Source of the DNA: a virus
Lineage: Duplodnaviria; Caudoviricetes
DNA: 64,000 nt
Virus record (IMG/VR): IMGVR_UViG_3300021387_000661
Location: 64,001-128,000 of that record
Strand: one strand, 5' to 3'
Below the pieces are notes generated by a model. That model did not search any database. It was not told the origin of the DNA and saw nothing but the letters and a program-made list of their open reading frames with translations. The position numbers and the translations under genes are program-made. Within the stretch, counting starts at the first letter, position 1, and every line of letters begins with the position of its first letter. Positions 1-43,464 of the stretch are shown here, piece after piece.

Positions 1-687
1 CCAACCACTGTTTTTAACAAGTTCAAATACTTCATCAAATGTAAAGTAACAGTCTCCATCTTTTAATGAAAGGTCATCATCTGCCCACAAAACAGATCCT
101 CCCATATCAAGAGGTTTAAGAGATTTTATGTTTGTGAAATCATCTTCTTTCTTAACATCAGTTCCATTGCCTCTTCTCCTGATGTCATTCCAAACAGATT
201 CAGAAACATAATTCTTGTCTTTTACAAGGAAAACAAAAAGTCTGTTTATCGACTTGTTGAAGTTTGTAACATCAAAAACATTTGAATTATTAAATCCATA
301 TGCATATGCACTACTTGGGAATTTGGCATTGATTTCTTTTGTCCACATATGGAATCCATAACTTCCATTGGTCTTGAGTCTTAATTCATTTCCATCATAA
401 AATTTAAGGTGCTTACATCCTTCATACCAGGCAATCCTGATATTCCAATGCAACTGGTTCACTTCATCAACAGTAGGAAGTCTCCAACCATTATTGTTAT
501 AATCTTTTACATCATCAAAATGGAATTTCACCTCACCATCAATCTCAAGGTTGTCAATTGCCCAATAGATTGTTGTGTTTTCACCAAAGTCAACATAATC
601 TGGATTGAAAGCATCCTCTTGCTTGATATCAGTACCTATACCCCTTCTTCTGATGTCACTCCAGACTGATTCACTTAATTTCTTCAT
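1..687 (-). CDS. Tagged polyprotein-like protein, partial (runs off the left end); two ESxWxDIRRRG-tagged modules, each resembling the Bacteroidota 'VDLG...WA...WRLPT' (Lcl/DUF1566-like) domain
   Basis: Not in the ORF track (no stop inside the window). Translated by hand from ATG 687: MKKLSESVWSDIRRRGIGTDIKQEDAFNPDYVDFGENTTIYWAIDN...GWRLPTVDE...YVSESVWNDIRRRGNGTDVKKEDD...LDMGGSVLWADDDL... Confidence 0.75.
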   Translation of the reverse strand, partial: MKKLSESVWSDIRRRGIGTDIKQEDAFNPDYVDFGENTTIYWAIDNLEIDGEVKFHFDDVKDYNNNGWRLPTVDEVNQLHWNIRIAWYEGCKHLKFYDGNELRLKTNGSYGFHMWTKEINAKFPSSAYAYGFNNSNVFDVTNFNKSINRLFVFLVKDKNYVSESVWNDIRRRGNGTDVKKEDDFTNIKSLKPLDMGGSVLWADDDLSLKDGDCYFTFDEVFELVKNSGW

Positions 688-689
688 AG

Positions 690-1475
690 TTAATCTTTAA
701 ATTTTATGAATGCTACACCTTCTGTACCACTTGGATTGTTTTCATAATCCAATTCAAATTCTTTCAAATGTACCCATCCAAGTTTTGTATATGTGTCTAT
801 CAATTCTTTCCTTAAATCCTCATACCAGTTATCAAGCATAGGATATGTGATTATATGTATATCTTGAACCGTATCATAATCAACATCTTCTAATTCACAA
901 GGAGGTATTGTTGGATTTCCATCATCATCATACCAAGTTCCATCATCTTCATAGAGTATTGCACCACCAACATCATAATCAGTACCAATCAAATCATATA
1001 TGGTATATTTTGCAAATTCAGACATATGATTGTCTTCAAAAATCTTCTTTGTGTATTTGACAAGAATATCCTGGATTTCAAGTTCAGAACTATACATCTG
1101 CTCAAATCTTCCATTTTTAATCAACTCATCAATATAATCATCCCTGTCTTTATCTATATAATCTCTCAATACATAGACATCATATTCATCTTCACCAATA
1201 TCCCATTTATCACAACCAAATACACCTGCTATTTCTGTATCACCCCAGATTATGGTTGGATTGTTTTTGGGTCTATTAAATGCAAAACACCTCCAGGGGT
1301 CAGAGTTTTCTTCTTCATAAACATCTCCAAGTCCCCAGAAATCTTTCATAAGTTGATATTTAACACCATCAATGACAAGGGTAATACCTTTGTCTTCCTG
1401 TTTTACATCATCGCCAAGACCTCTTCTTCTGATGTCACCCCATATAGATTCAGTTATGTTACTTAATTTTTTCAT
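690..1475 (-). CDS. Hypothetical acidic protein with N-terminal ESxWxDIR tag (candidate internal head protein)
   Basis: Starts MKKLSNITESIWGDIRRRGLGDDVKQED; the rest is unlike its neighbours. Confidence 0.8.
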   Translation of the reverse strand: MKKLSNITESIWGDIRRRGLGDDVKQEDKGITLVIDGVKYQLMKDFWGLGDVYEEENSDPWRCFAFNRPKNNPTIIWGDTEIAGVFGCDKWDIGEDEYDVYVLRDYIDKDRDDYIDELIKNGRFEQMYSSELEIQDILVKYTKKIFEDNHMSEFAKYTIYDLIGTDYDVGGAILYEDDGTWYDDDGNPTIPPCELEDVDYDTVQDIHIITYPMLDNWYEDLRKELIDTYTKLGWVHLKEFELDYENNPSGTEGVAFIKFKD

Positions 1476-1490
1476 ATACTTCTCAATTTT

Positions 1491-2123
1491 TCATATACTT
1501 ATTAATATTCCAAATGAGTCCACAATGTCATCAATTGGTTTGATTACCTTATAATCAAGTTCATTCTCTTTACAGAACTTCCAGAATCCACACTTCTCAA
1601 TGTCTGGGTCTTTTATCCTGTTCTCAATAAATGCCTGGATCATATCTTCCTTCTTTGCATTTCCCTTACCGGAGAGATTCTTCTTTCCCTCTGTTGGAGA
1701 AATGATAACCAAACAGTCTTCACCAAAATCCTCCAGTAATTTAATCCTTAAAAATGAGTTGAACAGTGCCAGGTCCAGGGTCGATGATGATATACTTCCA
1801 TAAGAGAAACCTTCAAGTCCTATAATGACCTCTTCATCACCAACCAATTCTACCAATCTGTTTGAGATTTTGTTTGCGATCATTTTCGCAGCCCTCATCT
1901 TTGTTCTCTGTTCTTCCCTGTAGTCCTTCTTATCAATCTCCCTGGTGTATGGGTTGAGTTCTATAATACCTGAAAGTTGTCTGTGATAGTTGAAAGTCTT
2001 GTTCTTACCAGTCTTCCAGTCCTTTCCATAATCATCAAAGAAAGAGATGAAAGAATATTCACCATCTTTATATATACACACTGCCGGCGAAATCAAACTA
2101 TAATCTATTCCTATTTTAATCAT
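1491..2123 (-). CDS. RuvC-like Holliday junction resolvase (RNase H fold)
   Basis: IGIDYS strand, LEGFSYGS, SPTEGKK..SGKGNAKKEDM and DDIVDS acidic motifs typical of phage RuvC-like resolvases. Confidence 0.75.
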   Translation of the reverse strand: MIKIGIDYSLISPAVCIYKDGEYSFISFFDDYGKDWKTGKNKTFNYHRQLSGIIELNPYTREIDKKDYREEQRTKMRAAKMIANKISNRLVELVGDEEVIIGLEGFSYGSISSSTLDLALFNSFLRIKLLEDFGEDCLVIISPTEGKKNLSGKGNAKKEDMIQAFIENRIKDPDIEKCGFWKFCKENELDYKVIKPIDDIVDSFGILISI

Positions 2124-2620
2124 CTCAATGGTACTCCTTTTTCTCCATTAATTTCTGGTTCTTCCCTCAATACATACTCATTACTATATTTGTACACATA
2201 GAACTTCTTATTTTCAAGTCTGTATTTGATACTTCTTTTTTCCTGGATACTCATATCTGAATATTTTATAGGATTATAACTCTTGACACCATTGGCTTCC
2301 ATAGTATAGTTATCTGCACCATGTGATGTATTGTGGTAGATAGACAGATACCAGGCATCTTCATACTTGAAATGGATCCTTATTACATTTGGTTTCTCTA
2401 TATTCATCACTTTTTCAAGAGGCCATATGATGAGGTCATAAAGGAAATCATACAATCTCAATTCAGTTGATTTATACTTTGGTACAATATCAATAAGTAT
2501 GTTTCTCCACCAGTGTTCATAATCCTGTTCTGGTAAATCTTCCTGTTTGATGTCAGAACCTATACCTCTTTTTCTGATGTCATTCCAAACACTTTCAGTT
2601 ATACTACTCAGCTTCTTCAT
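2120..2620 (-). CDS. Hypothetical protein with N-terminal ESxWxDIR tag
   Basis: MKKLSSITESVWNDIRKRGIGSDIKQED; stop overlaps the start of the RuvC-like gene. Confidence 0.8.
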   Translation of the reverse strand: MKKLSSITESVWNDIRKRGIGSDIKQEDLPEQDYEHWWRNILIDIVPKYKSTELRLYDFLYDLIIWPLEKVMNIEKPNVIRIHFKYEDAWYLSIYHNTSHGADNYTMEANGVKSYNPIKYSDMSIQEKRSIKYRLENKKFYVYKYSNEYVLREEPEINGEKGVPLR

Positions 2621-3410
2621 CTACTGTAAACCAATTTTTAGTATATTCTTTATATTTCTTGAAGTTCTTCACTGTTGTTGCTGTGATAGGGATGCCAATG
2701 TTACAAGCATAATCATTGAATGACCAGACAATGAAAACAACATCATCTAATTCAGGGAATGTGTCAATCATACTTTCTTTATAATCAATTAAACTGGAGG
2801 CAGTACTTCCTTCGCCATATTTATCAGTATATTGTATTTCCCAATCATAAACATCTGATTCATCAATTAACTGTAAGATATAATCACTTTCATAATAAGA
2901 TATATTATCAAATTTTGTTTCAATAAAACCACCTTTATGTCTTGGTAGGTATGCAATGTCTCCACCAATCTCTTTTAGTTTGGTTGCAATACCTTTACAG
3001 ATTGATATATAGTCTTCTTCAGATACTCTGTCTTCAAAGTCATCCAGGTCAAAGTCTTTCATTTCATCATATGTCAAGAAATCTGCAATCAGGTCTGTAC
3101 CATGTCCTCCATCATATATAAGATATGTATAAGGTGCTTCAAATGCCCTGATGTTTTTCATTTCTTCTGGGGAATATGCCTTATCTCTGGTATTCAAGAT
3201 TGCAACCCTACATTCAACATAACTATCATTGTAATTAAGGATTTCTTTTATGAGTTCTTCATAATAAGAATCAGAAGCATTTTTCAGATAGATATCTACA
3301 TCAATACAAGTGTGAACTTTTTTACCATCCTCTTGTTTTACCTCAGTACCTATACCCCTTTTTCTGATGTCATTCCATACTGATTCTGTTATATTACTTA
3401 ATTTTTTCAT
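2604..3410 (-). CDS. Hypothetical acidic protein with N-terminal ESxWxDIR tag
   Basis: MKKLSNITESVWNDIRKRGIGTEVKQED; first gene after the minus-strand CATAAATA at 3432-3439. Confidence 0.8.
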   Translation of the reverse strand: MKKLSNITESVWNDIRKRGIGTEVKQEDGKKVHTCIDVDIYLKNASDSYYEELIKEILNYNDSYVECRVAILNTRDKAYSPEEMKNIRAFEAPYTYLIYDGGHGTDLIADFLTYDEMKDFDLDDFEDRVSEEDYISICKGIATKLKEIGGDIAYLPRHKGGFIETKFDNISYYESDYILQLIDESDVYDWEIQYTDKYGEGSTASSLIDYKESMIDTFPELDDVVFIVWSFNDYACNIGIPITATTVKNFKKYKEYTKNWFTVDEEAE

Positions 3411-3431
3411 TTATTAATAAAATATATAAGA

Positions 3432-3457
3432 TATTTATGGATTTTTGTTATATTTAG
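3432..3457. promoter_or_regulatory. Divergent promoter pair: late-type CATAAATA (-) back-to-back with TTTGTTATATTTAG (+)
   Basis: Same arrangement recurs at 5590-5626, 21031-21057, 23790-23833 and 59478-59504. Confidence 0.65.
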
Positions 3458-3494
3458 AATACTGAAAGAAGTTTAATTTTAAGTAGATAATAAT

Positions 3495-4304
3495 ATGTTT
3501 GAAAAAGTAAATCCTTCACATCCAGACAAGGTTGCTGATAGAATTGCAGGAGCATTGTTAGACCTTGCATATGCCAACCAGGAGAATCCAAAGGTTGCTG
3601 TTGAAGTACTCATTGGTCATGGTCTTTGTACAATCATTACAGAATCAAGTTTTGATTTCAATGAGGAAAATGTACTCCCCATTGTAAAGAGAATTGCCGG
3701 AGATGGTGTAGATCTTAAACTCATTGCTGTTCCACAGGATGAACATCTTGCACATAACCAGGATGATGAAATTCGCTGTGGCGATAATGGGATCTTCAAG
3801 GGTGAACCACTTGATGGAGAAGAAATGGAACTGAGTAAATTAGCACAGGAAATTTATCAGATTTATCCTACTGATGGTAAGTATATCCTGGATGAGAAAT
3901 CAAATACATTGATTGTTTGTCAAAGTAATGCTGATTCTGAAGAACTTAAAAATTGGTTGGAAGAAAAGTATCCTCATTATACAGTCATTGTGAATCCTCT
4001 TGGTGATTGGACTGGGGGACCAGATGTTGATTCTGGGGCAACCAACCGCAAGCTTGGTTCAGATATGGGTAGGTCTGTCACCGGTGGAGGACTTTGGGGG
4101 AAAGATGCATCAAAATGTGACTGGTCTGTAAATGTATATGCATTTCTTGAAGCACAACGAACTGGAAAACCTCAAAAGTTTTTTTGTGCAATTGGAGATA
4201 CAGAAATAAATGGTATACCATATTCTGAAATTGTAAAGATTGCCCTTGAATATGTTAAACAAATTGGTGGATTTGAATCTGCTGCATCTTGGGGACTCAT
4301 TTAA
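3495..4304 (+). CDS. metK: S-adenosylmethionine synthetase (short phage form)
   Basis: EKVNPSHPDKVADRIA, CGDNG, DSGATNRKL and GGGLWGKDASKCD match the MetK signature motifs. Confidence 0.9.
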   Translation: MFEKVNPSHPDKVADRIAGALLDLAYANQENPKVAVEVLIGHGLCTIITESSFDFNEENVLPIVKRIAGDGVDLKLIAVPQDEHLAHNQDDEIRCGDNGIFKGEPLDGEEMELSKLAQEIYQIYPTDGKYILDEKSNTLIVCQSNADSEELKNWLEEKYPHYTVIVNPLGDWTGGPDVDSGATNRKLGSDMGRSVTGGGLWGKDASKCDWSVNVYAFLEAQRTGKPQKFFCAIGDTEINGIPYSEIVKIALEYVKQIGGFESAASWGLI

Positions 4305-4308
4305 GAAG

Positions 4309-4339
4309 AAAGGAGAGAACTTAAAAAATTCTCTCTTTT
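4309..4339. terminator. Bidirectional intrinsic terminator between convergent genes
   Basis: aaaggagagaa ... ttctctctttt inverted repeat. Confidence 0.5.
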
Positions 4340-5520
4340 AATTTTTTAATATCATCACCTTTTAGAATTATGATATTATTTTTAATCATACATTGGTGTT
4401 TGGATTCAGCCAAACCATCTTTATACTCATTTCTATCATATGGGCAAATCATTTTATCTCCATCAAAGAATTGATCACCTTTTACTTCATATAATTTACC
4501 ATTAATACAAAAGTCAGGGTGATAATAATGTTTCATTTCTTCATATTCATATTCAAATGTAATATCTGGTTGATATTCACAAGGAATGTTATTTTCTTTA
4601 CAATATTGATAAATTTCTACTTCCCAAGATGAATCAAATGTTAAACCATCATAAAGAATCATCTTTTGTTTTTTGTGTGACCATTCTTTAGTTTGTGAAT
4701 AATTTATTACACCATATTTCTTCTTACAGGTTTCTTGCATTTTATCAAGACATTCTTGTGTTTGTGTATAACTTTCAACACCATATTTTTTTCTACAAGT
4801 TTCTTTTGCTTTTTGTCTGAATTCTTTGACTTGTAATGCATGTTCAACACCATATCTTTCTAACATCACAGATTTTTGTTTTTCTTTATATTCTGGTGTT
4901 TGTGTAAAATGTTCTACTCCATATTTTTCTAAACTTGTTTTTCTAACAGATTTTTTATATTCTTCTGATTGTTGATAATATTCTACTCCATATTTTTCAA
5001 CATTTGTTTGTTTTACTTTATTTCTACATTCAGATAAGGAAGAATAATTTTCTACGCCATATCTATCTTTTGATGTATTTTTATATTTTTGTCTGATTTG
5101 TATTGATTGTAAAGGGTGTTCAACACCATATTTTTCTAGACAAGTTGCTTTTATTTTTTCAAGACATTCTTTTGTTTGTGAATAATTTTCAACACCATAT
5201 CTATTAATACATGTTTCTTGCCTTTTTATTAAAGTGTTCTTATCTTTTATAGAACAATTTTTACAACAATGTAAGTTATATTCCTTACTAAATGATAAGA
5301 AAGTACATCTCTTTCCACAAACTGGACATAACCCAAGTTTTAATTCTGGGTCATCATTAAAGTAGTGAAATAGTTTTTGTGTGAATTTAAAATCAGATGG
5401 AAAATTCCAGGTAGATAAAATCTGATAGTGCTCAGGAAATTTCTTTTTGAATTGTGGTTCTTCTATATTACCATTTGGGTGTGTCTTAAGAATAGACAAC
5501 ACTTCTTCCTTTGTCATCAT
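4321..5520 (-). CDS. Free-standing homing-endonuclease-like protein (Zn ribbon + KYGVE repeats + PD-(D/E)xK nuclease)
   Basis: CPVCG...HCCKNC, tandem (E/K)(K/R)YGVE repeats, C-terminal FDSSWE...YHPDF...LYEVKG. Confidence 0.7.
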   Translation of the reverse strand: MMTKEEVLSILKTHPNGNIEEPQFKKKFPEHYQILSTWNFPSDFKFTQKLFHYFNDDPELKLGLCPVCGKRCTFLSFSKEYNLHCCKNCSIKDKNTLIKRQETCINRYGVENYSQTKECLEKIKATCLEKYGVEHPLQSIQIRQKYKNTSKDRYGVENYSSLSECRNKVKQTNVEKYGVEYYQQSEEYKKSVRKTSLEKYGVEHFTQTPEYKEKQKSVMLERYGVEHALQVKEFRQKAKETCRKKYGVESYTQTQECLDKMQETCKKKYGVINYSQTKEWSHKKQKMILYDGLTFDSSWEVEIYQYCKENNIPCEYQPDITFEYEYEEMKHYYHPDFCINGKLYEVKGDQFFDGDKMICPYDRNEYKDGLAESKHQCMIKNNIIILKGDDIKKLKERIF

Positions 5521-5544
5521 AAATATAGTGATATTTTATATATT

Positions 5545-5597
5545 AGAGCAGGTGGGACAATTTACCAGATTTACCATCTGCTCTTTCTATATTTATG
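5545..5597 (-). promoter_or_regulatory. Late promoter followed by a conserved leader hairpin
   Basis: agagcaggtgg/ccatctgctct stem enclosing tttaccaga, then ttctatatttatg; analogous element at 20982-21038. Confidence 0.55.
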
Positions 5598-5629
5598 AAA
5601 ATTTATATTTGGTTTGTTATATTTAGTGT

Positions 5630-6691
5630 ATGGAAAATAGGAAAATTTGGTTAATTGCAGACACTCACTTTGGATATAAAGGAGATGATGAAGAATTTTT
5701 AAATGACTACATTGGTTACTTTGAAGATGTTGTCATACCATTGATGAAGAAAGAGGTCAAGGATGGGGATATATTGATCCATTGTGGAGATGTCTTTGAC
5801 AACCGTTCCAATATTGGATTGAACACCATATACAGAGTAATTAAGTTATTTGAGTCATTTTCAAATATCTTCAATGACATCAGGATAACGGTTGGTAACC
5901 ATGACATTCTCAAGAAATCAACCAATGACATCACATCCATCAATATGTTGAAACATATACCACATATTAAGATTTATTATACACCTGAAGTGGAAGTTAT
6001 TGATGGAAAGACCTGTCTTTTTAATCCCTGGGTGGAAGATCCAGCAAAAGAGAAGGAGATACTTGCAGGAGTAAATGTAAATTATGTGTTTGGTCATCTT
6101 GAAATTGGAGGGTCACAGATGACAAGTAGGACAGGTATGAAGATTGAATTCCAGGGTGGTGTAAAACCATCAGACTTTAAGGATGCCCAGGTTTATGCTG
6201 GTCATATCCATATCAAACAGGATAATAAGAATATTCATTATCTTGGGAATCCTTATCATAAAGATAGAGGTGATAGGGGTAATCCAAAGGGTATAACTAT
6301 TCTTGACTTGAAAACTGGAAAGACCAGGTTTGTTGAAAACATTATTTCTCCAAGATATTTAAAGGAAAACATTTATGACATTCTTAATCTGACTGTTGCA
6401 GACCTCAAGACAAGGTGGAACAATAACAGGATAGACCTTCATATGAAGAATACAGATTATACAAAGTGTAGTTTTGATGAATTGAAGACTGCCCTGGGAA
6501 ACTGTTATAGGAGTTTTGAGCCACATGGGGATGAGGTTGTTGCAGAATTGAATATTGTGAATGACATCAATTTTAATGATGCAAAAAGTAGTGATGATTA
6601 TATGGATGATTTTCTTCACAATCAGGATGTAGATGAGAATATGATGAATGCCATAAAAGAGAAACTAATTGAGTATAGAGACAGATTATGA
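5630..6691 (+). CDS. gp47: Recombination endonuclease subunit (T4 gp47 / SbcD / Mre11 metallophosphoesterase)
   Basis: ADTHFG, GDVFDNR, VGNHD, FGHLE and AGHIH motifs. Confidence 0.9.
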   Translation: MENRKIWLIADTHFGYKGDDEEFLNDYIGYFEDVVIPLMKKEVKDGDILIHCGDVFDNRSNIGLNTIYRVIKLFESFSNIFNDIRITVGNHDILKKSTNDITSINMLKHIPHIKIYYTPEVEVIDGKTCLFNPWVEDPAKEKEILAGVNVNYVFGHLEIGGSQMTSRTGMKIEFQGGVKPSDFKDAQVYAGHIHIKQDNKNIHYLGNPYHKDRGDRGNPKGITILDLKTGKTRFVENIISPRYLKENIYDILNLTVADLKTRWNNNRIDLHMKNTDYTKCSFDELKTALGNCYRSFEPHGDEVVAELNIVNDINFNDAKSSDDYMDDFLHNQDVDENMMNAIKEKLIEYRDRL

Positions 6692-6954
6692 TAAAATTTC
6701 AAGCAGTAAATAATGTGGTTATATTGGTGAAGGATAAAGGAGAACCATCACCAATTATATTACCAAATCAGCAACCAAAGAATATGTATGAAATCCCAGA
6801 ACCATATACAGGTGTGATAGATAGTGTGGGGATAGACAATGAATGGAAGAAAGGAGACCATATTGCTTTCTGTGATATGGGTGGTGTTTATATGAAAGTA
6901 GATGATATTGAATATGTGGTCATTACTCCAGAAATGATAATTGGTAAATTGTAG
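6688..6954 (+). CDS. groES: GroES-like co-chaperonin
   Basis: 88 aa; IILP mobile loop, GVIDSVG, KKGDHIAF, VDDIEYVVI..EMIIGKL pattern. Confidence 0.7.
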   Translation: MIKFQAVNNVVILVKDKGEPSPIILPNQQPKNMYEIPEPYTGVIDSVGIDNEWKKGDHIAFCDMGGVYMKVDDIEYVVITPEMIIGKL

Positions 6955-6956
6955 TT

Positions 6957-7100
6957 ATGGAAGAAATTGTTTGGAACATAAGATTGGGAAAATTCAACAT
7001 CCGTTGGAAAAAGTATTATTATCCACCTTTCATTCAGAAAGATTTTTGTAAAGAATACAAGTATTTCAGTATTGGTAAACTTACATTTGTTATTATGTAA
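6957..7100 (+). CDS. Small hypothetical protein (47 aa)
   Basis: Hand-translated MEEIVWNIRLGKFNIRWKKYYYPPF...; fills the gap between groES and the exonuclease. Confidence 0.4.
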   Translation: MEEIVWNIRLGKFNIRWKKYYYPPFIQKDFCKEYKYFSIGKLTFVIM

Positions 7101-7117
7101 TTGTAAATTATGTAGAT

Positions 7118-7984
7118 ATGGATTTTGATGATATTTTTAATAATTCATTTGAGAAAAAGATAGAAGATAAGAACTTGGTGAACTTCAAGGTAAATGAATG
7201 TAGGAGACTTATTCTTGAGAAGTTTGGAGACATTAAGTTTATTGAGGAAGGTCATCAGTATTTTATTGGGGAGGAAGAATACATTCCTGTTAGTAACATC
7301 ATTAAAGAATATGAACCCGAAGTTGACTGGGATCAGAAAGCAGAAGATTATGCCAGAAAGTGGGGAAAAAAAAAGGAGGATGTACAGAAGGAGTGGAAAC
7401 TCAATAATCTGAAATCAACTATTTCCGGGACTAGGACACACTCTTTTGGTGAGAGTTATACCAATCTGTTGTGTGGTCATCCTGAACTCATCTGTGAGCA
7501 GAATAAACCACAGTATATTGAGGAATACAACACAATGGTTTCCACCTATCCAAAGGAGGATGCAGTGAAGAAGTTTTATGATGAATTGGAGACCAATTTA
7601 CATCCTATTGGTGCAGAGTTTAAACTTTCTTCAGAATACATAAAAGAATCCAGATCCATCTGTGGTACTTGTGACCTTTTGTTTTATGACAGTGAGAAAG
7701 ATGCTTATGTGATTGGTGACTGGAAGACAAACAAGTCATTGATAAAGGAATTTTCCAGGACTAATGGAATTCATATGACAGGGTGTATGAGTAAGTTTGT
7801 TGATGAACCTCTTTCACATTATACACTTCAATTCAATATTTATCAGAGAATGCTTGAATCTGTTGGATTGAAGATAATTGACAGGATACTGATATGGTTG
7901 AAGGATGATGGAACATATGAAAGGATAAATATTGAGAAGATTCCAGATAATGTTGTAGATAAGATTTTGAAAGGTGAGGATTAA
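7118..7984 (+). CDS. PD-(D/E)xK exonuclease (RecB/Cas4-like family)
   Basis: GTRTH, ICGTCDLLF, IGDWKTN and YTLQFNIY motifs. Confidence 0.8.
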   Translation: MDFDDIFNNSFEKKIEDKNLVNFKVNECRRLILEKFGDIKFIEEGHQYFIGEEEYIPVSNIIKEYEPEVDWDQKAEDYARKWGKKKEDVQKEWKLNNLKSTISGTRTHSFGESYTNLLCGHPELICEQNKPQYIEEYNTMVSTYPKEDAVKKFYDELETNLHPIGAEFKLSSEYIKESRSICGTCDLLFYDSEKDAYVIGDWKTNKSLIKEFSRTNGIHMTGCMSKFVDEPLSHYTLQFNIYQRMLESVGLKIIDRILIWLKDDGTYERINIEKIPDNVVDKILKGED

Positions 7985-7999
7985 TTCCCCACCTTTTCT

Positions 8000-8007
8000 C
8001 ATAAATA
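8000..8007 (+). promoter_or_regulatory. Late promoter CATAAATA
   Basis: Variant of the T4 late promoter TATAAATA, 5 nt before ATG 8013; recurs before most structural genes. Confidence 0.65.
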
Positions 8008-8012
8008 ATTGT

Positions 8013-10769
8013 ATGAGTACAACCAATGAATCAATATGGAATGACATCAGGAGAAGAGGTAATGGTTCTGATGTGAAGAAAGAAGATGATGTGAATCTTC
8101 TAGATATAGATGGACTCTATGATTATATCAAATCCAAATATGAGAAATATGTATTTGATTTAGATAAGGACACATTTGGTATATTAAATAAAAGGAATAT
8201 TGTTGTAGATATAATATCCAATGTGAGTCTGTTTACATCATATGATAAAAGTGGTAAATTGGATCACATTCTTTTATCTTGGACAAAAGTAAAGATAGGA
8301 ATGCCATTCTTTGATAAACTTTCAGAAAGGTTTAATGTACAATCACCAAATGTGTGTAGAAGAAGGATTACTGAAAAGGATGGTACCTGTACAAACCAGA
8401 CATATATAGATGTTATTGATTTCTTTTTGAAAAATATGGACAATATGTTAGTTAATGAATCAATATGGAATGACATTAGAAGAAGAGGTAATGGTGATGG
8501 CGTCAAGCAGGAAGAATTTACAGAAGAATTTATAGATAAAGTAAAATCGGATTTAATTTGTTTTACTATGTCAGTTGTAAATTATATAGAGAATTATGAA
8601 CTGACATTTGATGGTTTTTACAAGTATTTGGAAGAAATTGAGAATCCAGATGAAGTCAAAAAAATCATTTATTATGTAAAAACTCATAAAGATGAATGTG
8701 ATAAACTTTTAGAAAAAGACATCAAATTTGAAAATAAATTACTAGATGAAAAGATTAATGTCTATTTATTGAGATTTGTTGACAATATTGTATATGATGA
8801 AAAGTATCATAATACATTGTCAGATATAAAAAAGTTTGCATCTGAAATTTTTAAAGGACATAAAAGTTCATATGATTTCCATATAAACAAAAAACTGGTT
8901 TTTAAGGATAAGTCTGAATTGTTTAATGACTATATTGAAGATAAATGGGAAGACGGTTCTCTTAAACAAAAGATTGATGATTTGATTAAAAATGAAAATG
9001 ATGAAATATCCAAATATGGATTTGTAAAAGAACCAGGAAAAACCATATCTGAAACAGTTAATGATTGGTGGTATTCATTGGATGAAGACAAAAGAAATGA
9101 TTTGGGATGGGATGAATTTGGAGAAGATGCAGAAGGAGAATACTATTCAGATCACAATCCTGATTATAATGAATATACTGGTGAAGATTTTGAAGCAGAT
9201 GAGTGGTGGGATGATGCATATGGTATAAGAAGGGTTAAAATCTATTGTAGTGAACATTCAAAAACAAATGAGTCAGTTTGGGGTGACATCAGGAAACAAG
9301 GTCTTGGAGATACCTTAAAGAAAGAAGATGATCCATTTGTAGATAGAGATATAGATTCTTTATCCAAGTATGAGTTCTGTGATTATTTGAATTTTCATTA
9401 TGAACCACTTATGGGAAGGAGTATTCACACAAATGAACATACAAGAGAAGTGACAATACCTATATACATCCATCAAGGATATGCACATATGTATGCAACA
9501 TTTAATGATGATTCAAAACTTGTAGATATAAGTCTTCCTCTTACACAAAAAAATCCTCCAAGATTATATAATAGGATGTGCAAGAAATTTAATGTTATCC
9601 ACACAAGGCCACACTGGTCATATATTAAACCAATTGATGGTGATGAATTGACCAATACATTTTGTCTTGAAGTGATTGATTTTATTCTTGAGAATGTTAA
9701 TCATCCTTTACTGAAAAAGATTGTCTTACACAAGGTGAAAAAATTAAATGAATCAGTTTGGGGTGACATCAGAAAAAGAGGTAATGGTACTGATGTAAAG
9801 AAAGAAGATGAGATGACACAAGATGATTTGGAAGCACTTAATGATTTTATATTTGGATTTGCAACAAGAGTAGTATGGGATGGAGTGAGGGATTCTTTGA
9901 CAAATTTCTTAAAATATATTGATGAAAATCCTGAAGCACTTGACTGTGACATTGATAGGGTAAAGAAGTATGTTGAAGATAATTGGCATAAAAGTATATG
10001 TGATGATGTTGAAGCAGCAATAGAACAGGAAGATAAGGAAAAAGAAGAAGGTATGAATGAATCCATTTGGAATGACATCAGAAGAAGAGGTAATGGTACT
10101 GATGTAAGGAAAGAAGATGATATGACTTCTGATGATTATAGGAATTTGAAGGTAATATTGAAGATGTTTGGTCGTGAGGTCAGATTCTTTGGTAATCATA
10201 AAAACCAGAAATTCTTTCCAGTAAATGCCAAGAAATATGAAATTACTCTTGAAGACTGTTTGTATTTCATTGATGTACTTGTTGACGGTAAATTTACGGG
10301 TGCTGATTTTTCTAAACTGAAAAGATATATTGAAGTAAATTGGGAACGAGACCCTATGATTAAGAACATTATACAATGGACTGTTGATGGTAAAAATTCA
10401 AAAGAAATTGACCAAGAAATCAGGAATGCCTCAAAAAGTGATGAGTTTTGGGATTTGAATGAATGTGATGGTGTCCCTGGTGGATTAACACCTGCTGATG
10501 TAGGTGGAATGGGATCTGCATATTTTCCTGGACCAAATGGAGAACCTGGTTCCGGAGACCTTCCATTGCCAACTGGAATAGTTTATAAACAAGTTGCACC
10601 TTTTGATACATTTATCAAAATGAGAAGACCAAAAAAGAATAAAAAGAAAAAGTTCAGAAAGGAAGATGAACTATGTGTTCATAGTGAAAATCCACCAATA
10701 TATAGTCATGTTGATGATTTTAGAGATTATGTGGATAGGACATATAATAATATTGATAAAAGGAAATAA
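8013..10769 (+). CDS. Modular polyprotein: five ESxWxDIR-tagged modules plus a C-terminal capsid-N-arm-like segment
   Basis: Tags at ~8025, 8454, 9267, 9747 and 10056; ATG 8013 preferred over GTG 7974 because the promoter lies between them. Confidence 0.8.
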   Translation: MSTTNESIWNDIRRRGNGSDVKKEDDVNLLDIDGLYDYIKSKYEKYVFDLDKDTFGILNKRNIVVDIISNVSLFTSYDKSGKLDHILLSWTKVKIGMPFFDKLSERFNVQSPNVCRRRITEKDGTCTNQTYIDVIDFFLKNMDNMLVNESIWNDIRRRGNGDGVKQEEFTEEFIDKVKSDLICFTMSVVNYIENYELTFDGFYKYLEEIENPDEVKKIIYYVKTHKDECDKLLEKDIKFENKLLDEKINVYLLRFVDNIVYDEKYHNTLSDIKKFASEIFKGHKSSYDFHINKKLVFKDKSELFNDYIEDKWEDGSLKQKIDDLIKNENDEISKYGFVKEPGKTISETVNDWWYSLDEDKRNDLGWDEFGEDAEGEYYSDHNPDYNEYTGEDFEADEWWDDAYGIRRVKIYCSEHSKTNESVWGDIRKQGLGDTLKKEDDPFVDRDIDSLSKYEFCDYLNFHYEPLMGRSIHTNEHTREVTIPIYIHQGYAHMYATFNDDSKLVDISLPLTQKNPPRLYNRMCKKFNVIHTRPHWSYIKPIDGDELTNTFCLEVIDFILENVNHPLLKKIVLHKVKKLNESVWGDIRKRGNGTDVKKEDEMTQDDLEALNDFIFGFATRVVWDGVRDSLTNFLKYIDENPEALDCDIDRVKKYVEDNWHKSICDDVEAAIEQEDKEKEEGMNESIWNDIRRRGNGTDVRKEDDMTSDDYRNLKVILKMFGREVRFFGNHKNQKFFPVNAKKYEITLEDCLYFIDVLVDGKFTGADFSKLKRYIEVNWERDPMIKNIIQWTVDGKNSKEIDQEIRNASKSDEFWDLNECDGVPGGLTPADVGGMGSAYFPGPNGEPGSGDLPLPTGIVYKQVAPFDTFIKMRRPKKNKKKKFRKEDELCVHSENPPIYSHVDDFRDYVDRTYNNIDKRK
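8025..10120 (+). repeat. Five dispersed ~65-bp in-frame repeats encoding NES(I/V)W(N/G)DIR(R/K)xGxGxxxKxE(D/E)
   Basis: Visible in both DNA (core TGACATCAG) and protein; five more copies on the minus strand in 142-3410. Confidence 0.9.
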
Positions 10770-15336: not shown

Positions 15337-16194
15337 ATGAAGATATTTGGATTTGATGACTATCAGGTCTTGAATGAAAGTTTCAAGAGTGGTAAATTAA
15401 GAAATATTATCCAGCAGCATGGAATGCCAAAGTATGATTTGGACAGGAAGTTTCTTTATGACCTCCAGGATGATGATATTCTTGGTGTTATGGATTTTGA
15501 TGAGTGGTATGATTTTCACAGGGATAATAAGAATAGTTATCATATTGCCCTGGAAGATGGTAAGTATCTTGTACTTGGAAACATTGATACATTGAAGTAT
15601 TATGCTGATGATGAGGATTTCCAGGAAGAGTTTAAGAAAAGAAGGGATGAAAGACATCCTGGAAATGAACTCAATGATATTCCTTCATATGAAAGGGAAA
15701 AAGCCCTTGAAGATGAGACTACAAAACACTTCAGGGAGAAGAAGAATGAACTGGAACATAAGAGAAATCTTGAGACATTCAAGACCAATCTTGGTGACAA
15801 TCTTGGAAAACTTGCAGAGACTATAAGGGAAACTTTTGAATCAAATATAGAAGGCAAGATTTCAGACCTTGTTTTAGAATATAATGATAGTGTTTCTACA
15901 GAAATATCTGATGTCTTTGATGTTGAGTTTATGGGTATAACATATAATATTGATTATGATTATACCATCAATATTTCTGATGGATACAAAAAGTATGGTG
16001 CAACATATTATGATGTCACCATATCACCAAAGACAGCAAGAGTATATGATGATGAACTTGGTGATACATTTGATGTAACTGAACTCTTTGATGATCCAAG
16101 TGCTTTGCTGGCAGATTATGATATTGATGATGTGGAAGGAGAGATTTCTGACTACTATAAGTATTATGGTGTAAGCAGAGGAGATTTCTTTTAA
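15337..16194 (+). CDS. Hypothetical acidic protein with capsid-targeting-like propeptide
   Basis: MKIFGFDDYQVLNE|S; own CATAAATA at 15309-15316. Confidence 0.7.
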   Translation: MKIFGFDDYQVLNESFKSGKLRNIIQQHGMPKYDLDRKFLYDLQDDDILGVMDFDEWYDFHRDNKNSYHIALEDGKYLVLGNIDTLKYYADDEDFQEEFKKRRDERHPGNELNDIPSYEREKALEDETTKHFREKKNELEHKRNLETFKTNLGDNLGKLAETIRETFESNIEGKISDLVLEYNDSVSTEISDVFDVEFMGITYNIDYDYTINISDGYKKYGATYYDVTISPKTARVYDDELGDTFDVTELFDDPSALLADYDIDDVEGEISDYYKYYGVSRGDFF

Positions 16195-16795: not shown

Positions 16796-18544
16796 ATGAG
16801 ATATACAAGTAAGGGATATTTCCCCCTTAATGAGAGTAAAAAAGCAAAGGACATCCAAGTTGTCTTTTTGTCATCCAGGGCAGAGAAGACTACAAAGAGT
16901 TCCAATTCAATGTTTTTCTTTGAAGAAGCAGCCAAGAAGGCAGGATTGAAATTGATTACCATTGATCCATCATCATCTACAATTTCAAAAGGTACTGGTG
17001 ATGATTATAATGTAGTTGAGGAAAATGGTGATGCAAAGAAGAATTTTACACTCAACCCAACCAATACGATTATCGTACCTCGTCGTACTGTTTTGAAGAA
17101 CATTGAATCAAGAGATTTCCTTACAGAACTACAGAATGATGGTTTCTTTGTATTGAACACATTGGATGCAATTGATAACTGTGAGGATAAGTTCATAACT
17201 TATAAGAAGTTGAAAGCATATGGTGTTCCAACTCCAAAGACAACTGTTGTTACCAGTTCATCAATGAATAAACTTCAGGAGAAGGTTGATGCAATTGGAA
17301 GTAATTTTCCTATCATTATCAAGATTACAAAGGGAACACAGGGTATTGGTGTTGCACAGATTGACTCAATGATTTCACTTAAGTCTGTCCTCCAGGCCAT
17401 CTTTGCACTTGTACCAAAGGCAGATATTCTTCTTCAGGAGAAAATCAATTCTGATTATGACCTTCGTATCCATGTTCTTTATAAGGGATTTGAAAGGATG
17501 ACACCAGGTATTGATAATTTTGAGATTATTGGATGTATGCAGAGAAATCAGCTTGCTGGTGATTTCAGAAGTAATTATTCTCTTGGTTCAACAGCAGAAA
17601 AAGGACACCTTACACCAGAACAGGAGAAGATTGCAAAGATGGCAGCAAAAGCAACTGGATGTAGATGGTGTGGTGTTGACCTTATTATGGACAGTAGGAC
17701 AAAGGCATCTTATGTTATTGAGGTTAATTCATCACCAGGTACAAAGGGTATTACAACTGCTGCCGGTGATGATGTTGTTGGAATATTGATGGATATGTTC
17801 AAGGACTTCAAATATACAAAGTATGATTCAGATCAGATTGGTAGGTATGAGACTGTTACATTCAAGAATCTTGATGATGGTGTTGATGCTGCTATGAAAT
17901 TTGATGATAGTAAGACATTCACAGAATTGGAATGTAGTTCGGTAAATGCAACTGATGATGATGTTACCTTCTTGTTCAATGGAGTTACTTATAAGGCAGA
18001 ACTTTCAGGTATGAGAAAGGGAAATCCTATGATTGAGTTAAACATTAAGTTCAATGGAACTATCTATAAAAATGAGTTGGTTGTATTGAAGACAGTCAAT
18101 GACAATATTAATAAAAATGTTGCTGTTGGTGGTAGTAAGTTTCTTCATAGAATTTCTGACAAGGCTGTTGTTGTAGAGAATTCATTCATCTTAACAGATA
18201 ACACAACTGGATTTGAAGTTCCAGTACAAAAACTTGATGAGGGTCTTGAAGTTAAGGAAAAGAAAGGTGATGAATTACTTGATTTAAAGGGATTGAAGAA
18301 ATTGTTCACAAGATTTATCAATGGTAGTCAGAATGTTTATGAATATGAAGGTTGGAAGATTAAGAGTGATGATGGTAGAGACAACTGGACATTAAAATTC
18401 AGAGGTAATGAAATAGTAGAGTGTAAGGAAAACTATAGTACATTCATTAGTGATTATTTGACTTTTGAGAAAGCATGTAAGGTTGCTGGAGTCATTGAAT
18501 CATTCTATGGACATGAAGTTGATTTATCAAAATACAATAAATAA
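16796..18544 (+). CDS. rimK: RimK-family ATP-grasp ligase fused to a degenerate RimB-like protease domain and an extra C-terminal domain
   Basis: PIIIKITKGTQGIGV, LLQEKI..YDLRI, FRSNYSLG, GVDLI and IEVNSSPG ATP-grasp motifs. Confidence 0.8.
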   Translation: MRYTSKGYFPLNESKKAKDIQVVFLSSRAEKTTKSSNSMFFFEEAAKKAGLKLITIDPSSSTISKGTGDDYNVVEENGDAKKNFTLNPTNTIIVPRRTVLKNIESRDFLTELQNDGFFVLNTLDAIDNCEDKFITYKKLKAYGVPTPKTTVVTSSSMNKLQEKVDAIGSNFPIIIKITKGTQGIGVAQIDSMISLKSVLQAIFALVPKADILLQEKINSDYDLRIHVLYKGFERMTPGIDNFEIIGCMQRNQLAGDFRSNYSLGSTAEKGHLTPEQEKIAKMAAKATGCRWCGVDLIMDSRTKASYVIEVNSSPGTKGITTAAGDDVVGILMDMFKDFKYTKYDSDQIGRYETVTFKNLDDGVDAAMKFDDSKTFTELECSSVNATDDDVTFLFNGVTYKAELSGMRKGNPMIELNIKFNGTIYKNELVVLKTVNDNINKNVAVGGSKFLHRISDKAVVVENSFILTDNTTGFEVPVQKLDEGLEVKEKKGDELLDLKGLKKLFTRFINGSQNVYEYEGWKIKSDDGRDNWTLKFRGNEIVECKENYSTFISDYLTFEKACKVAGVIESFYGHEVDLSKYNK

Positions 18545-30409: not shown

Positions 30410-33181
30410 ATGACTATAGAACAATTACTATGTCCTGCTGTTATCAGGTGGGAATCAGAGTTTAGAAAAAAACTCAATGAGAGTAATATTGAAATGTCTG
30501 AAGATGAAATTGATGCAGAATTTGATAAGTGGCTTGTAGAGAATGAGGAACTTATCAATCAGTCTGTCAAAGATAACATCAATCGTATCAATGAGACAAT
30601 TGAAAGAAATAAGCAGAAATTCGCAAAAAAACTGAATGAAAAATTTGATTTTGGTTTTGATGATGATGATTTTGCTAATGAAGATGGTGATGATACAAAA
30701 AAACCAGAAGAACCAGTTATTGAAGAACCAGAAGAGAAGATTGATCCTGATGAACCAGAAGAAGTAAGGACTATTACAGGTGCTATAAAACTTGTTGATA
30801 AGAAGGACTCAAAGTATAATATTTTTGGTGTGATTAATGACTTATATGATATGATTGAGGAGGAACATACCAATGAGATGACACATAGGTCAATTTTAAG
30901 GAAATTGGATGTATCAGACATTACAAATATGTCTGCATTGTTTGCATTTACAAATCTTCCAAATATTGATTTGAGTGCTTGGAATACAGGTAGGGTAAGA
31001 ACTATGGAAGGTATGTTCTACAAATCAACATTCAACAATGACACTATTTGTGAATGGGATGTTAGTTCTTGTAAGGACTTTAAGAATATGTTCTTGTTCT
31101 GTCCATTCAATCAGTCATTGAAGAAATGGACTCCTGCATTTGTAGAAAAGACCTTTACCAATCCTGACGGAACAAGGGAGAAAAGGTCAGTAAGACAGGA
31201 TCTTCCAGTCATTGGTGGTACAGAAGATGAAACAAGAAGTGTTGCCAAGAAATTCAGACGTGGTATGTTCCAGGCAATGAGGGATGAGGATGAAGTTGCT
31301 GAAAGTAAGAAATATACACATGTTGTTGATTATGATTCTTTCATAAATGAAGGAAAGTTTAAAGATTTTATACATAAGGGTGTTGAAAAGGTTAAGAGTT
31401 TCTTCAAGACCATTATGATGAAGTTTGGTGATTTCATAACTTTCTTTAATGAGAATGGTGATATTTATCCTGCTGTTAGTCCTTATTCATCATTGAATGC
31501 TATTGCTGCTGGAGAAATTCCTGGGGTTTCAGCATTTTGTGATGTTGAGAATGATTGCCTTAATGGTGTAAGTAATGAGGCAAGTGTTGTTGAAAGTCCT
31601 GAATACTATGGTATCATTGACAAGGACAGTATTGAGTACAGAAACTATGAGACCTTTAAGGGTATGATCAATGAACATTATGCAAAGTATGGTAACACTG
31701 GTGCTTTCCAGATGGTTAATGAGGAAGAATTCAAGAGAGTTGGTTTCTCTGCTGCTGAAGGTGGTGTTGCTGCAAGGGACATCTATAGTGATGATTTGAG
31801 GGAAATCCTTGAAGACCTTGTTGAGAATGTTCCTGCTTATAAAGGTGATAGACATGGTGGCGCTGTATTTATCTGGGGTGCTCCAGGTATTGGTAAATCA
31901 ACTATTCCAAAGGCAATTGTAAAGGCATGGAATAAAGAAAAGGGTGACGCCCTTCATAAGAAAGCACTTATGGTTGTTCAGTGTGGTGACTTGACTATAG
32001 ATGGTTTCTCACTTCCTATTCCAATTGAGAAATCTATTGAAGATTATCTTGATGAAAGACCAATTTTGAAAGATAAGGTTACATCACAAGGTATTTCAAC
32101 AGATACTCTTGAGAAGATAAAGAAGAATATGCATAAGGTGTCAGCAGAGGCTCCAAAGACTTGGCTACCTGCTTTCAAGATGAATGCAACCCAGGAAGAG
32201 ATTGATGTTCTTAATGATATTGCTAATGGTTATCTTGAGATTAAGAATAAGGATGGTAAAATTGTTAAGACTGAAACTACAGAGGGAGGTATTCTTCTCT
32301 TTGATGAATTCTTCCGTGCAAATGAGGAAGTATTCAAGATTATGATGCAGATTATCCTTAACCGTGAATACAGTGGATATATGCTTGGTAATAAGTGGGG
32401 TATTCTTTGTTGTTCTAACCGTCCAGAGGATGATGAGGAAGTAAGGGCAGGTTTTGAAAAGACTGGTGCTGTGGTAGGTACTCGTATGTTGTCAGGCGCT
32501 TATAACTTCATCCCTTCATTTGATGAGTGGAAAAAGTGGGCAGTCTCTGAAGGTGGTTTTGATGAGATTACTCTTGAGTTCCTTAAGTTTGATAAGGATT
32601 CTGGAAATGGTGAATATACCAACTGGCATACCATCAGACCAGATGAATATATTCAGAAGGGTAAAACTGCTTGGCCAACACCTCGTACTTGGTCTGCACT
32701 TATGAATGAACTCAATCTTTATAAGGAGAATCATGGATATGCAAATATTATTGATATTCCTAGCGAAAAGATTCGTAGAATGGCAGATGGTATTATTGGT
32801 GAGGATATGGCAGTCAGATATGTTTCTTTCCTTCAGAGTCATGCTTCTTCAATTGCTGTTGATGCAAAGGCTGTATTGGAAGACCCTGATTATGTAATTC
32901 CATCATCATCAAAATGTGCAGATGTTGTAAGACAGATTGAAAATTATGTTACAATTAAGTATGATGATACAGATCTTCCAGATGTAAGTCTTTTGATGAA
33001 TATGTTCAACAAACTTAATGATACATATTCTGGTTCAAAGGATAACTTTGTAAAACTTATGCACTTGAATATCATTAAACATTTCAAGGTTATGAGTAAT
33101 AAGGATAACAGACTTGCATTGAGGGAGTATCTCGAAGCAACAAATGACAGATATAATTTTGATAAAGCTGATTTTGCTTAA
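30410..33181 (+). CDS. MoxR-like AAA+ ATPase with an N-terminal BspA/DUF285-like repeat module
   Basis: WGAPGIGKS, ILLFDEFFRA, CSNR and WPTPRTW; LDVSDITNMSALF/WNTGRVRTMEGMF/WDVSSCKDFKNMF repeats. Confidence 0.8.
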   Translation: MTIEQLLCPAVIRWESEFRKKLNESNIEMSEDEIDAEFDKWLVENEELINQSVKDNINRINETIERNKQKFAKKLNEKFDFGFDDDDFANEDGDDTKKPEEPVIEEPEEKIDPDEPEEVRTITGAIKLVDKKDSKYNIFGVINDLYDMIEEEHTNEMTHRSILRKLDVSDITNMSALFAFTNLPNIDLSAWNTGRVRTMEGMFYKSTFNNDTICEWDVSSCKDFKNMFLFCPFNQSLKKWTPAFVEKTFTNPDGTREKRSVRQDLPVIGGTEDETRSVAKKFRRGMFQAMRDEDEVAESKKYTHVVDYDSFINEGKFKDFIHKGVEKVKSFFKTIMMKFGDFITFFNENGDIYPAVSPYSSLNAIAAGEIPGVSAFCDVENDCLNGVSNEASVVESPEYYGIIDKDSIEYRNYETFKGMINEHYAKYGNTGAFQMVNEEEFKRVGFSAAEGGVAARDIYSDDLREILEDLVENVPAYKGDRHGGAVFIWGAPGIGKSTIPKAIVKAWNKEKGDALHKKALMVVQCGDLTIDGFSLPIPIEKSIEDYLDERPILKDKVTSQGISTDTLEKIKKNMHKVSAEAPKTWLPAFKMNATQEEIDVLNDIANGYLEIKNKDGKIVKTETTEGGILLFDEFFRANEEVFKIMMQIILNREYSGYMLGNKWGILCCSNRPEDDEEVRAGFEKTGAVVGTRMLSGAYNFIPSFDEWKKWAVSEGGFDEITLEFLKFDKDSGNGEYTNWHTIRPDEYIQKGKTAWPTPRTWSALMNELNLYKENHGYANIIDIPSEKIRRMADGIIGEDMAVRYVSFLQSHASSIAVDAKAVLEDPDYVIPSSSKCADVVRQIENYVTIKYDDTDLPDVSLLMNMFNKLNDTYSGSKDNFVKLMHLNIIKHFKVMSNKDNRLALREYLEATNDRYNFDKADFA

Positions 33182-43170: not shown

Positions 43171-43464
43171 ATGATACAAAAATATGATGAATATTTTAGT
43201 GATGATATTCAATTGAATGAATCACAGGAAAGGATGATAAATGAAGCTGCAGAAATAATTGCAAAAAAAATCAAGAATGGGGAGGAAGTAGATGAAGGAA
43301 TCCTGGGCAGTGTTGTTGGTGGACTTACCGGTGTTACAATCGGGCCTGCAATCGGTAGGGCAATATGTAAAGCTCTTGGTATTACTGGAGGAATGTTATA
43401 TGACCTCTTTACAAGTAGGTTGTTTACAACTGCTGTTTCTGCATATATAGGATATAAGAATTAA
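43171..43464 (+). CDS. Small late protein: acidic propeptide plus hydrophobic glycine-zipper peptide
   Basis: MIQKYDEY..LNE|S..INE|A..VDE|GILGSVVGGLTGVTIGPAIG; CATAAATA at 43140. Confidence 0.7.
   Translation: MIQKYDEYFSDDIQLNESQERMINEAAEIIAKKIKNGEEVDEGILGSVVGGLTGVTIGPAIGRAICKALGITGGMLYDLFTSRLFTTAVSAYIGYKN

Follow-up and report, generated by a model that had tools for sequence, protein, structure and literature searches.

Giant phages hold many proteins in their heads, but to our knowledge the selection of such cargo is understood in detail only for T4. Here we analysed a window of 64,000 nucleotides (nt), positions 64001-128000 of a 344,746-bp phage genome, 34.7% G+C (IMG/VR record IMGVR_UViG_3300021387_000661), in which a peptide of about 20 residues, hereafter the tag, recurs on different protein modules that are encoded singly or in strings. 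The closest known system is that of the T4 internal proteins (IPI, IPII, IPIII and Alt) with their capsid targeting sequence (CTS), and the next closest is that of the ejection-protein paralogs of phiKZ and SPN3US. In T4, a ten-residue targeting sequence alone directs proteins to the core and is then removed (PMC9026906, PMC10229621); the leader by itself packages foreign proteins before its removal (PMC9026906, PMC3012670, PMC10229621), and the protease gp21 cleaves after L/I-x-E (PMC9026906). In phiKZ, 201phi2-1 and SPN3US, the inner-body or ejection paralogs are cut by gp175/gp245 after (S/A)-x-E (PMC5694885, PMC9026906). Giant phages of the phiKZ type have many head-internal paralogs, in numbers that vary from relative to relative, and the same N-terminal propeptide, with several cut sites, can recur on more than one paralog (PMC5694885, PMC9026906).

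From its sequence, the phage studied here is classed as T4-like, not phiKZ-like. Because the conserved peptide always lies just after a site of the head-protease type, loading into the capsid and cutting apart there are probable, and we hold it on balance probable that the tagged modules form a T4-style head-cargo system, enlarged and modular, in which the modules would be packaged, cut by a gp21-family protease and left with the common peptide. The resemblance to T4 lies in a T4-like head module (portal, S77 protease and gp23-like capsid protein) with late-promoter-like boxes, in short leaders of about 10 residues ending (L/I)-x-E, and in a conserved N-terminal element on diverse, fast-changing proteins. 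An earlier note on this DNA knew of no described system of this form; the CTS on the diverse T4 internal proteins is a direct precedent (PMC3012670, PMC9026906). Unlike the T4 proteins, however, the modules here carry a second conserved element of about 20 residues after the presumed cut, which would stay on the mature protein. They occur in polyproteins of up to 8 modules, the retained peptide evolves in concert within each genome and exists in leaderless copies as well, and no body is similar in sequence to the T4 internal-protein families.

With the phiKZ-type phages, the phage shares its standing as a giant phage and a gp21-related protease, whereas their propeptides are often longer than 100 residues and are discarded, and neither a retained tag nor a multi-cargo polyprotein has been described for them. 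T4 Alt is packaged and injected with a cleavable leader, and its paralogs ModA and ModB are made early without one; the leader-bearing and leaderless tagged proteins may split likewise, but the element they share is a 20-residue peptide on unrelated bodies and not an enzyme domain. As in RNA-virus polyproteins, one open reading frame (ORF) holds several independently folding units separated by (here predicted) sites for the virus's own protease, but in a double-stranded DNA tailed phage, with accessory modules and with cutting that would occur in the prohead. What sets the system apart from those of T4, phiKZ and SPN3US is the retained, concertedly evolving peptide, the polyprotein arrays with cassette turnover, the capsid-like tail piece and the leaderless copies.

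Distribution of the tag

The tag has the consensus S(V/I)W.DIR(K/R)RG.G...K.ED. A six-frame search of the window for its W.DIR..G pattern gave 10 copies where 0.008 would be expected, and all 10 lie within positions 1-10769, each with (L/I/V/T/M)-x-E directly before it. The earlier note had reported 10 copies, with the tag opening four minus-strand genes (starts 687, 1475, 2620 and 3410), recurring inside the 687 gene and occurring five times in the ORF 8013-10769; all of its coordinates hold. Window positions are given below, each tag spanning its Ser to +22 amino acids (aa); the arrow marks the presumed cut.

133-198, minus strand: second, internal tag of the 687 gene
604-669, minus strand: first tag of the 687 gene
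1383-1448, minus strand: tag of the 690-1475 gene
2528-2593, minus strand: tag of the 2120-2620 gene
3318-3383, minus strand: tag of the 2604-3410 gene
8031-8096, 8460-8525, 9273-9338, 9753-9818 and 10062-10127, plus strand: polyprotein tags
1-687, minus strand: two-module tagged gene, running past the window edge; leader MKKLSE; junction VSE at 199-207
690-1475, minus strand: single-module tagged gene, 261 aa; leader MKKLSNITE at 1449-1475; acidic body
2120-2620, minus strand: single-module tagged gene, 166 aa; leader at 2594-2620
2604-3410, minus strand: single-module tagged gene, 268 aa; leader at 3384-3410; 240-aa alpha/beta body
8013-10769, plus strand: polyprotein, 918 aa; leader MSTTNE; five tagged modules (aa 7-146, 150-417, 421-577, 581-680 and 684-814), then a sixth, untagged tail piece
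10464-10766, plus strand: C-terminal tail piece of the polyprotein, aa 818-918, after LNE↓C

The full ORF of the 687 gene covers genome positions 63650-64687 (345 aa), and orthologs of the polyprotein have 2-7 tags and lengths of 381-1159 aa. The whole genome holds 27 tags in 16 ORFs, with two further clusters at 183.8-189.1 kb and 198.5-201.2 kb. With a profile built from these 27 tags (a hidden Markov model of the tag had been proposed in the earlier note as a check on the genome and its relatives), a search of 1.84 billion cluster representatives returned 370 proteins at a threshold of E<=1e-3, of which 114 passed E<=1e-10; a single protein carries up to eight tags, and the median tag-to-tag spacing is 153 aa. 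Those members of the 370 clusters that were checked all come from metagenome assemblies and none is named; we know of no cultured member of the family. We found no paper describing the tag family, and it is not described in the Jug-phage paper (PMC12880540). The genome has no DNA match in the GenBank phage collection. At the protein level only, it is closest in GenBank to uncultured huge phages (LR756500 and others) and to the Lak megaphages; the portal matches LR756500 and the Lak phages, while the polyprotein 8013-10769 has no protein match in that collection.

Relatives in IMG/VR were retrieved via the capsid protein, and the following were compared for their tag content.

G001, 411 kb: capsid protein 92% identical, 42 tags
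G004, 233-kb fragment: capsid protein 91% identical, 10 tags
G002, 363 kb, 96% complete: capsid protein 75% identical, 0 tags
G003, 413 kb: capsid protein 49% identical, 0 tags

The core body family described below is absent from G002 and G003, as are the tags, and because of this the tag system is, judged by sequence, an accessory, clade-specific expansion and not a core assembly part. In a further relative, G005 (L038:1498-2812), orthologs of the 1-687 and 2604-3410 cargos have the same kind of leader and a strongly diverged tag, ALWKGVIDRSKSN..R.ED. The first tag profile overlooked these G005 tags, so the counts for tag-less relatives can be underestimates.

Leaders and a head-protease-type site

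Tag statistics were drawn from 424 tags of 150 cluster representatives. Counting outwards from the presumed cut, 96% have Glu at P1, 94% have I/V/L/T/M at P3 and 97% have Ser at P1'. Lys abounds in the internal junctions, 61% of which have Asn at P2, and the N-terminal tags (n=131) have L/I at P3 in 92% and Glu at P1 in 100%. From the x-E before the tag, the earlier note had inferred a cut of the gp21 type. The sequence is consistent with this, since in the T4-like head and tail block of the window the gene for a gp21-family (S77) protease adjoins those for a T4-like portal and a gp23-like capsid protein, and an aliphatic-N-E↓S/C site is common to the capsid protein, the protease/scaffold junction and the polyprotein tail.

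38482-41400: sheath
46462-48177: portal (PF07230 Portal_T4, E=1.9e-70)
48238-50199, plus strand: prohead protease with scaffold-like part (PF03420 Peptidase_S77, 34.9 bits against a cut-off of 27; phrog_207, E=3e-39)
50934-52661, plus strand: gp23-like major capsid protein (PF07068 Gp23, E=6.7e-36)

In the capsid protein, LNE↓S stands at aa 50-53 (nt 51081-51092) and is kept down to 47% identity. The region aligning with the N terminus of mature gp23 begins 14 residues further on; the site is close to where T4 gp23 is cut and by this comparison is probably the maturation site. In the protease, the Peptidase_S77 domain covers aa 1 to about 175, and VNE↓S, present in five genomes, comes right after it (nt 48751-48762); its position fits the C-terminal self-processing known for gp21, gp175 and gp245 (PMC5694885). 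The C-terminal part of the protease is scaffold-like over about 480 aa and includes some eight repeats of 14 aa (type HQDYLAEKMNQMI), all of them containing (L/V/I)AE; by analogy, a cut would be expected in such repeats, as it would in the capsid protein and after the protease domain. In T4, the protease (gp21) and the scaffold (gp22) are encoded by separate genes. A large homing/HNH endonuclease gene (window 41472-43115; phrog_3339, E=1.6e-113) lies between the sheath gene and the portal block.

The leaders are 6, 9 or 11 aa long, end in aliphatic-x-Glu and fall into the classes MKKLS.I.E, MKKLSE and MIPDFKTYI.E. T4 IPII and IPIII start MKTYQEFIAE↓A, and this CTS is like MIPDFKTYI.E, MSKFYEHITE and MIKKFEEFINE; sequences of this length do not allow statistics, and composition may account for the likeness. 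Orthologs of one cargo (2604-3410) carry different leader classes and lineage-specific tags, and the change of leader class among orthologs fits an interchangeable signal. Our analysis suggests that the leader is more likely than the tag to be the signal for packaging or targeting.

Leaders of this kind are not confined to tagged proteins. Among non-tag cases, [LIVMT]NE[SC] fell within residues 4-25 in 8 of 18, against 1.8 expected (p=1.6e-4), and control motifs with D, Q or K at P1 gave no such N-terminal excess in the non-tag proteins, which start MIKKFEEFINE↓S and similar. Short leaders running to aliphatic-N-E↓S were seen in non-tag proteins at window positions 15337-16194, 16796-18544, 30410-33181, 35164-36930 and 43171-43464 and at genome positions 177964-178314. 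This set includes a RimK-like ATP-grasp enzyme, whose leader MRYTSKGYFPLNE is kept in a relative, and a 923-aa ATPase-containing protein. By their N termini, the leader-bearing non-tag proteins are candidates for further capsid-targeted, protease-processed proteins.

Other tagged proteins have no leader at all. Leaderless MS(V/I)W starts number 4 in the genome here and about 10 in G001, and these proteins are without the Glu, exactly where nothing needs removal. The four leaderless carriers lie in a plus-strand region of small ORFs at 260-320 kb with few late boxes. The earlier note had proposed that the tag acts as a docking or ejection signal; the leaderless copies in this region better fit a role after release.

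Both tag loci of the window had also been said to follow a late promoter, and a late-promoter-like box was found at each.

3432-3439, minus strand: CATAAATA box, 21 nt upstream of the ATG at 3410
8000-8007, plus strand: CATAAATA box, 5 nt upstream of the polyprotein ATG at 8013

The CATAAATA box precedes the sheath, portal and protease genes and the first gene of tag operons, and of its 85 copies, 55 fall in the 60 nt before an ORF start, a zone that makes up 4% of the sequence. In about ten genes, CATAAATA or TATAAATA ends 4-5 nt before the ATG (window 8000-8015; genome 198527, 258376, 263343, 340940). If these boxes are T4-like late promoters, the mRNAs of those roughly ten genes would be leaderless or nearly so.

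Bodies behind the tag and the polyprotein tail

After removal of the tags, 12 of the 27 modules in the genome share one core body family of about 130 aa, which includes polyprotein modules 1 and 3 and accounts for 288 of the 424 metagenomic modules (68%). A second family (84 metagenomic modules) includes polyprotein modules 2, 4 and 5, joined via metagenomic intermediates, and a third has 23 modules; overall, the 424 modules fall into about 14 BLAST clusters. The two bodies of the 687 gene resemble each other and are weakly Lcl_C/DUF1566-like. The description of the domains in the earlier note as mostly different stands in part, in that these three groups are each made up of kin, while the remaining bodies are without detectable similarity.

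The prevalence of the core body favours a reading in which the tag is an integral part of one shared fold and the carriers are diverged paralogs of a single domain, an outcome that the earlier note had named as contrary to its proposal. We regard this as barely credible. A profile of the core body matches none of the other 15 modules of the genome. One leaderless carrier (genome 296495-296893) has, directly behind its tag, a body identified as Pfam WYL_2 (PF10902; residues 32-104; 45.8 bits against a cut-off of 26.7, E=7.8e-12), and WYL_2 is an Sm-like SH3 barrel. The 240-aa body of 2604-3410 differs from the core body in its secondary-structure plan, and some of its orthologs carry an extra DUF285 extension. 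AlphaFold modelled a two-module core protein (36 sequences) as two domains with pLDDT >90 and junctions of 46-57, and 2604-3410 (22-sequence alignment) with pLDDT 40-52 for residues 1-29 and about 85 for the body (pTM 0.79). In these two unrelated carriers, leader and tag have pLDDT 40-57 and the tag is unpacked, and structural alignments of the modelled carriers begin after it. Because the bodies are confident and the tags low-confidence, the models indicate that the tag is an unstructured linear motif on different folds and not part of any fold. Together with the WYL_2 carrier, they bear out the proposal that the tag is portable between unrelated bodies.

The bodies gave few leads to function. 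A Foldseek search with the core-module model against the PDB and BFVD returned nothing significant. In VIA-align, the best match of the core module was an immunity protein (Z 6.6, 84 residues), and the T4 MotA C-domain, UBC/RWD, frataxin and type III chaperone-like sandwiches followed at Z 4-6, a range of common arrangements. The 2604-3410 model had no Foldseek match and a best Z of 5.1, and a search of the ESM Atlas gave no usable match. Pfam, PHROGs and NCBIfam contained no family for the five window carriers except a sub-threshold Lcl_C match to the 687 gene; the internal-protein and Alt families of Pfam, PHROG and NCBIfam matched no carrier, and neither did PF12699 (phiKZ-like inner-body) at E<=0.1 or 0.01. 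The modules had been taken for injected effectors in the earlier note, a description that draws no support from these library and fold searches, in which the bodies showed no known toxin or enzyme fold.

The tail piece of the polyprotein, its last 101 residues, is conserved. It is Gly/Pro-rich, with a segment GGMG.AYFPG...GSGD that is like the N-arm of the capsid protein (aa 66-91), followed by a Lys-rich stretch. Aliphatic-x-E↓C stands before it in 21 of 26 representatives, and aliphatic-x-E is the only conserved feature upstream. The tag-less G002 (L035:1465-1779) encodes the tail piece by itself, in an ORF of 104 aa that opens with the 10-aa leader MEDIEKNINE, and in G006 (L050:1255-1827) the piece stands in a 190-aa ORF after a 79-aa tag-less part. 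It has the appearance of a small, ancient head protein that acquired the tagged modules by later fusion. The stand-alone tail-piece ORFs in tag-less relatives adjoin a UvsX/RecA-like gene. A complex prediction with capsid protein residues 96-575 and the tail piece scored 0.00, which speaks neither for nor against binding, and co-variation of the capsid N-arm with the tail piece across genomes was dropped as a line of argument, its six pairs being only partly consistent.

A tail piece that resembles the capsid N-arm, a protease fused to a scaffold-like domain and the dominance of a core body without an enzyme-like fold would all suit modules that serve as prohead core or scaffold filler, sizing a very large prohead and cut by the protease, with no role in the next infection. 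We consider this improbable. G002 and G003 lack both tags and core bodies, so the modules are dispensable for such a head; folded 15-kDa pieces would be unable to exit the shell as T4 scaffold peptides do; and the fast turnover of modules between near-identical phages is unusual for assembly parts.

Concerted evolution, cassette shuffling and a proposed route

Modules that are fused in one genome were found as separate genes in another. In G004, the 687 gene is represented by two adjacent single-module genes (80% and 89% identity); in G001, the ortholog of 2120-2620 forms the second of two modules in one gene, and an N-terminal module here is an internal module of a three-module gene (89% identity); other modules occupy different loci in different genomes. 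By sequence, the fused and free forms appear equivalent, which follows naturally if the strings are cut. In this genome as in the syntenic relative, DUF7487 proteins (window 4321-5520; three paralogs in L007) border the polyprotein locus. They have many "YGVE" repeats of about 33 aa and a nuclease-like C-terminal part, and their genes may be mobile and endonuclease-like, helping to rearrange the locus.

The tags, in turn, evolve in concert within each genome. Tags of one protein are 72.5% identical to each other, those of different proteins 48%. All tag copies of the genome here (G000) and of its syntenic relative have DIR(K/R)RGNG, 35 or more copies in G001 have DIH(K/R)RSNG, the leaderless ones included, all copies in G004 have DMM(R/K)RGSG, and G005 has its more distant ALWKGVIDRSKSN tag on orthologous cargos. 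The tag types differ although G001 and G004 have capsid proteins with 91-92% identity to that of G000. Of six genome-specific columns, five fall within the tag and one immediately behind it, and the conserved core body has none. Because of this concerted evolution, the sequences point to one shared, fast-changing partner that would read the tag. The protease domain is almost unchanged among G000, G001 and G004, whose tags differ, and is unlikely to be the co-evolving partner; the core body is not supported as one either, having no genome-specific columns and no cis docking of the tag in the model.

Fixed tag residues are written with different codons. This variation among synonymous codons led us to reject recent gene conversion as the sole cause of tag uniformity, to which it probably contributes. 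We also considered that the tag might be kept mainly as a recombination anchor at the DNA level, serving cassette shuffling with a functionless peptide. It is indeed exactly at tags that modules change locus or switch between being fused and free, tags agree in their codons at 0.59-0.66 where 0.47 would be expected, and the Asp at tag position 5 (P5', e.g. 8043-8045) is GAC in 25 of 26 copies, where the genome uses GAT in 76%. We give this explanation very little credence: the Ser, Val, Arg, Gly and Glu codons vary freely among tag copies, the invariant residues hold across 370 diverged clusters, and G001 uses AGT, AGC and TCC for the fixed Ser at P10' and has a weaker GAC bias (21 of 35). The bias itself may reflect a constraint at the nucleotide level or a crossover core.

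A single partner that accounts for the genome-specific co-variation could also be a hub of the host or the phage. The carriers would then be uncut multi-domain cytoplasmic proteins that the tag recruits, singly or multivalently, to this hub, with x-E as a helix start and nothing packaged. In the models the tag shows the disorder expected of a hub-binding motif, leaderless tagged proteins are encoded in the small-ORF region poor in late boxes, and P3, P2' (V/I), P3' (W) and P6' (I/M) have helical spacing. We think such a hub rather unlikely, given how much it leaves unexplained: the conserved leaders of 6-11 aa, the loss of the Glu in exactly the leaderless forms, the P2 Asn preference common to the capsid and protease sites, the aliphatic-x-E that introduces the tail piece with either 10 or 830 residues upstream, and the late-type boxes before the operons.

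Several of these observations nevertheless weigh against a head-cargo system cut by the phage protease. With the helical spacing just described, part of the conservation of the "site" could be that of an amphipathic helix rather than of a cut site. N termini of the form M.KF.E(F/Y)I are common in AT-rich phages, and the likeness to the T4 CTS may be partly compositional. The leaderless members in the region poor in late boxes imply that the family is not purely late or virion-associated, and G002 and G003 keep the capsid-protein site yet carry no tags. The Arg at P7' is AGA/AGG in nearly all copies, which is hard to reach without some gene conversion, so that concerted evolution alone is no proof of a partner. 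Finally, the bodies are mostly acidic, without a recognisable effector fold, and cleavage and packaging are predicted from sequence logic.

For the head-cargo system that we favour, we propose the following route. Late genes would encode single modules or strings of modules. Each chain would begin with a CTS-like leader of 6-11 residues running to aliphatic-x-Glu, and its internal junctions would be Lys-rich linkers running to (V/I/L/T/M)-N-E. The leader, perhaps with the capsid-like tail of the polyprotein, would bring the chain into the prohead core, where the gp21-family protease would cut after each Glu. The cuts would free folded modules of 12-30 kDa, too large to exit the shell, and every freed module would begin with the same peptide of about 20 residues; the leaderless MS(V/I)W proteins would reach the same mature N terminus after removal of the Met. 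The tag peptide would then most likely be a handle for one shared partner acting after release, in the head or in the infected cell.

More tentatively, the tag may be a programmable address label, by which a dedicated receptor of the phage or the host sorts dozens of unrelated proteins, whether capsid-delivered or newly made. If so, receptor and label would co-evolve fast, differing between phages whose capsid proteins are 92% identical, and the label would amount to a code by which a phage sorts proteins, one that could readily serve as a handle to load proteins of choice.

The tag family is widespread, with 370 clusters and 27 to more than 40 copies per genome, and has no name in the libraries searched. 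Our results suggest that uncultured T4-related giant phages have scaled up the T4 trick, with strings of polyprotein cargo, cassette shuffling and a common peptide on the products. If this is true, the tag would give a handle for predicting virion cargo from sequence, and existing metaproteomes should contain semi-specific peptides beginning S(V/I)W. The family would also provide a test case for the co-evolution of a peptide and its reader, and a natural design for loading several proteins into one capsid.

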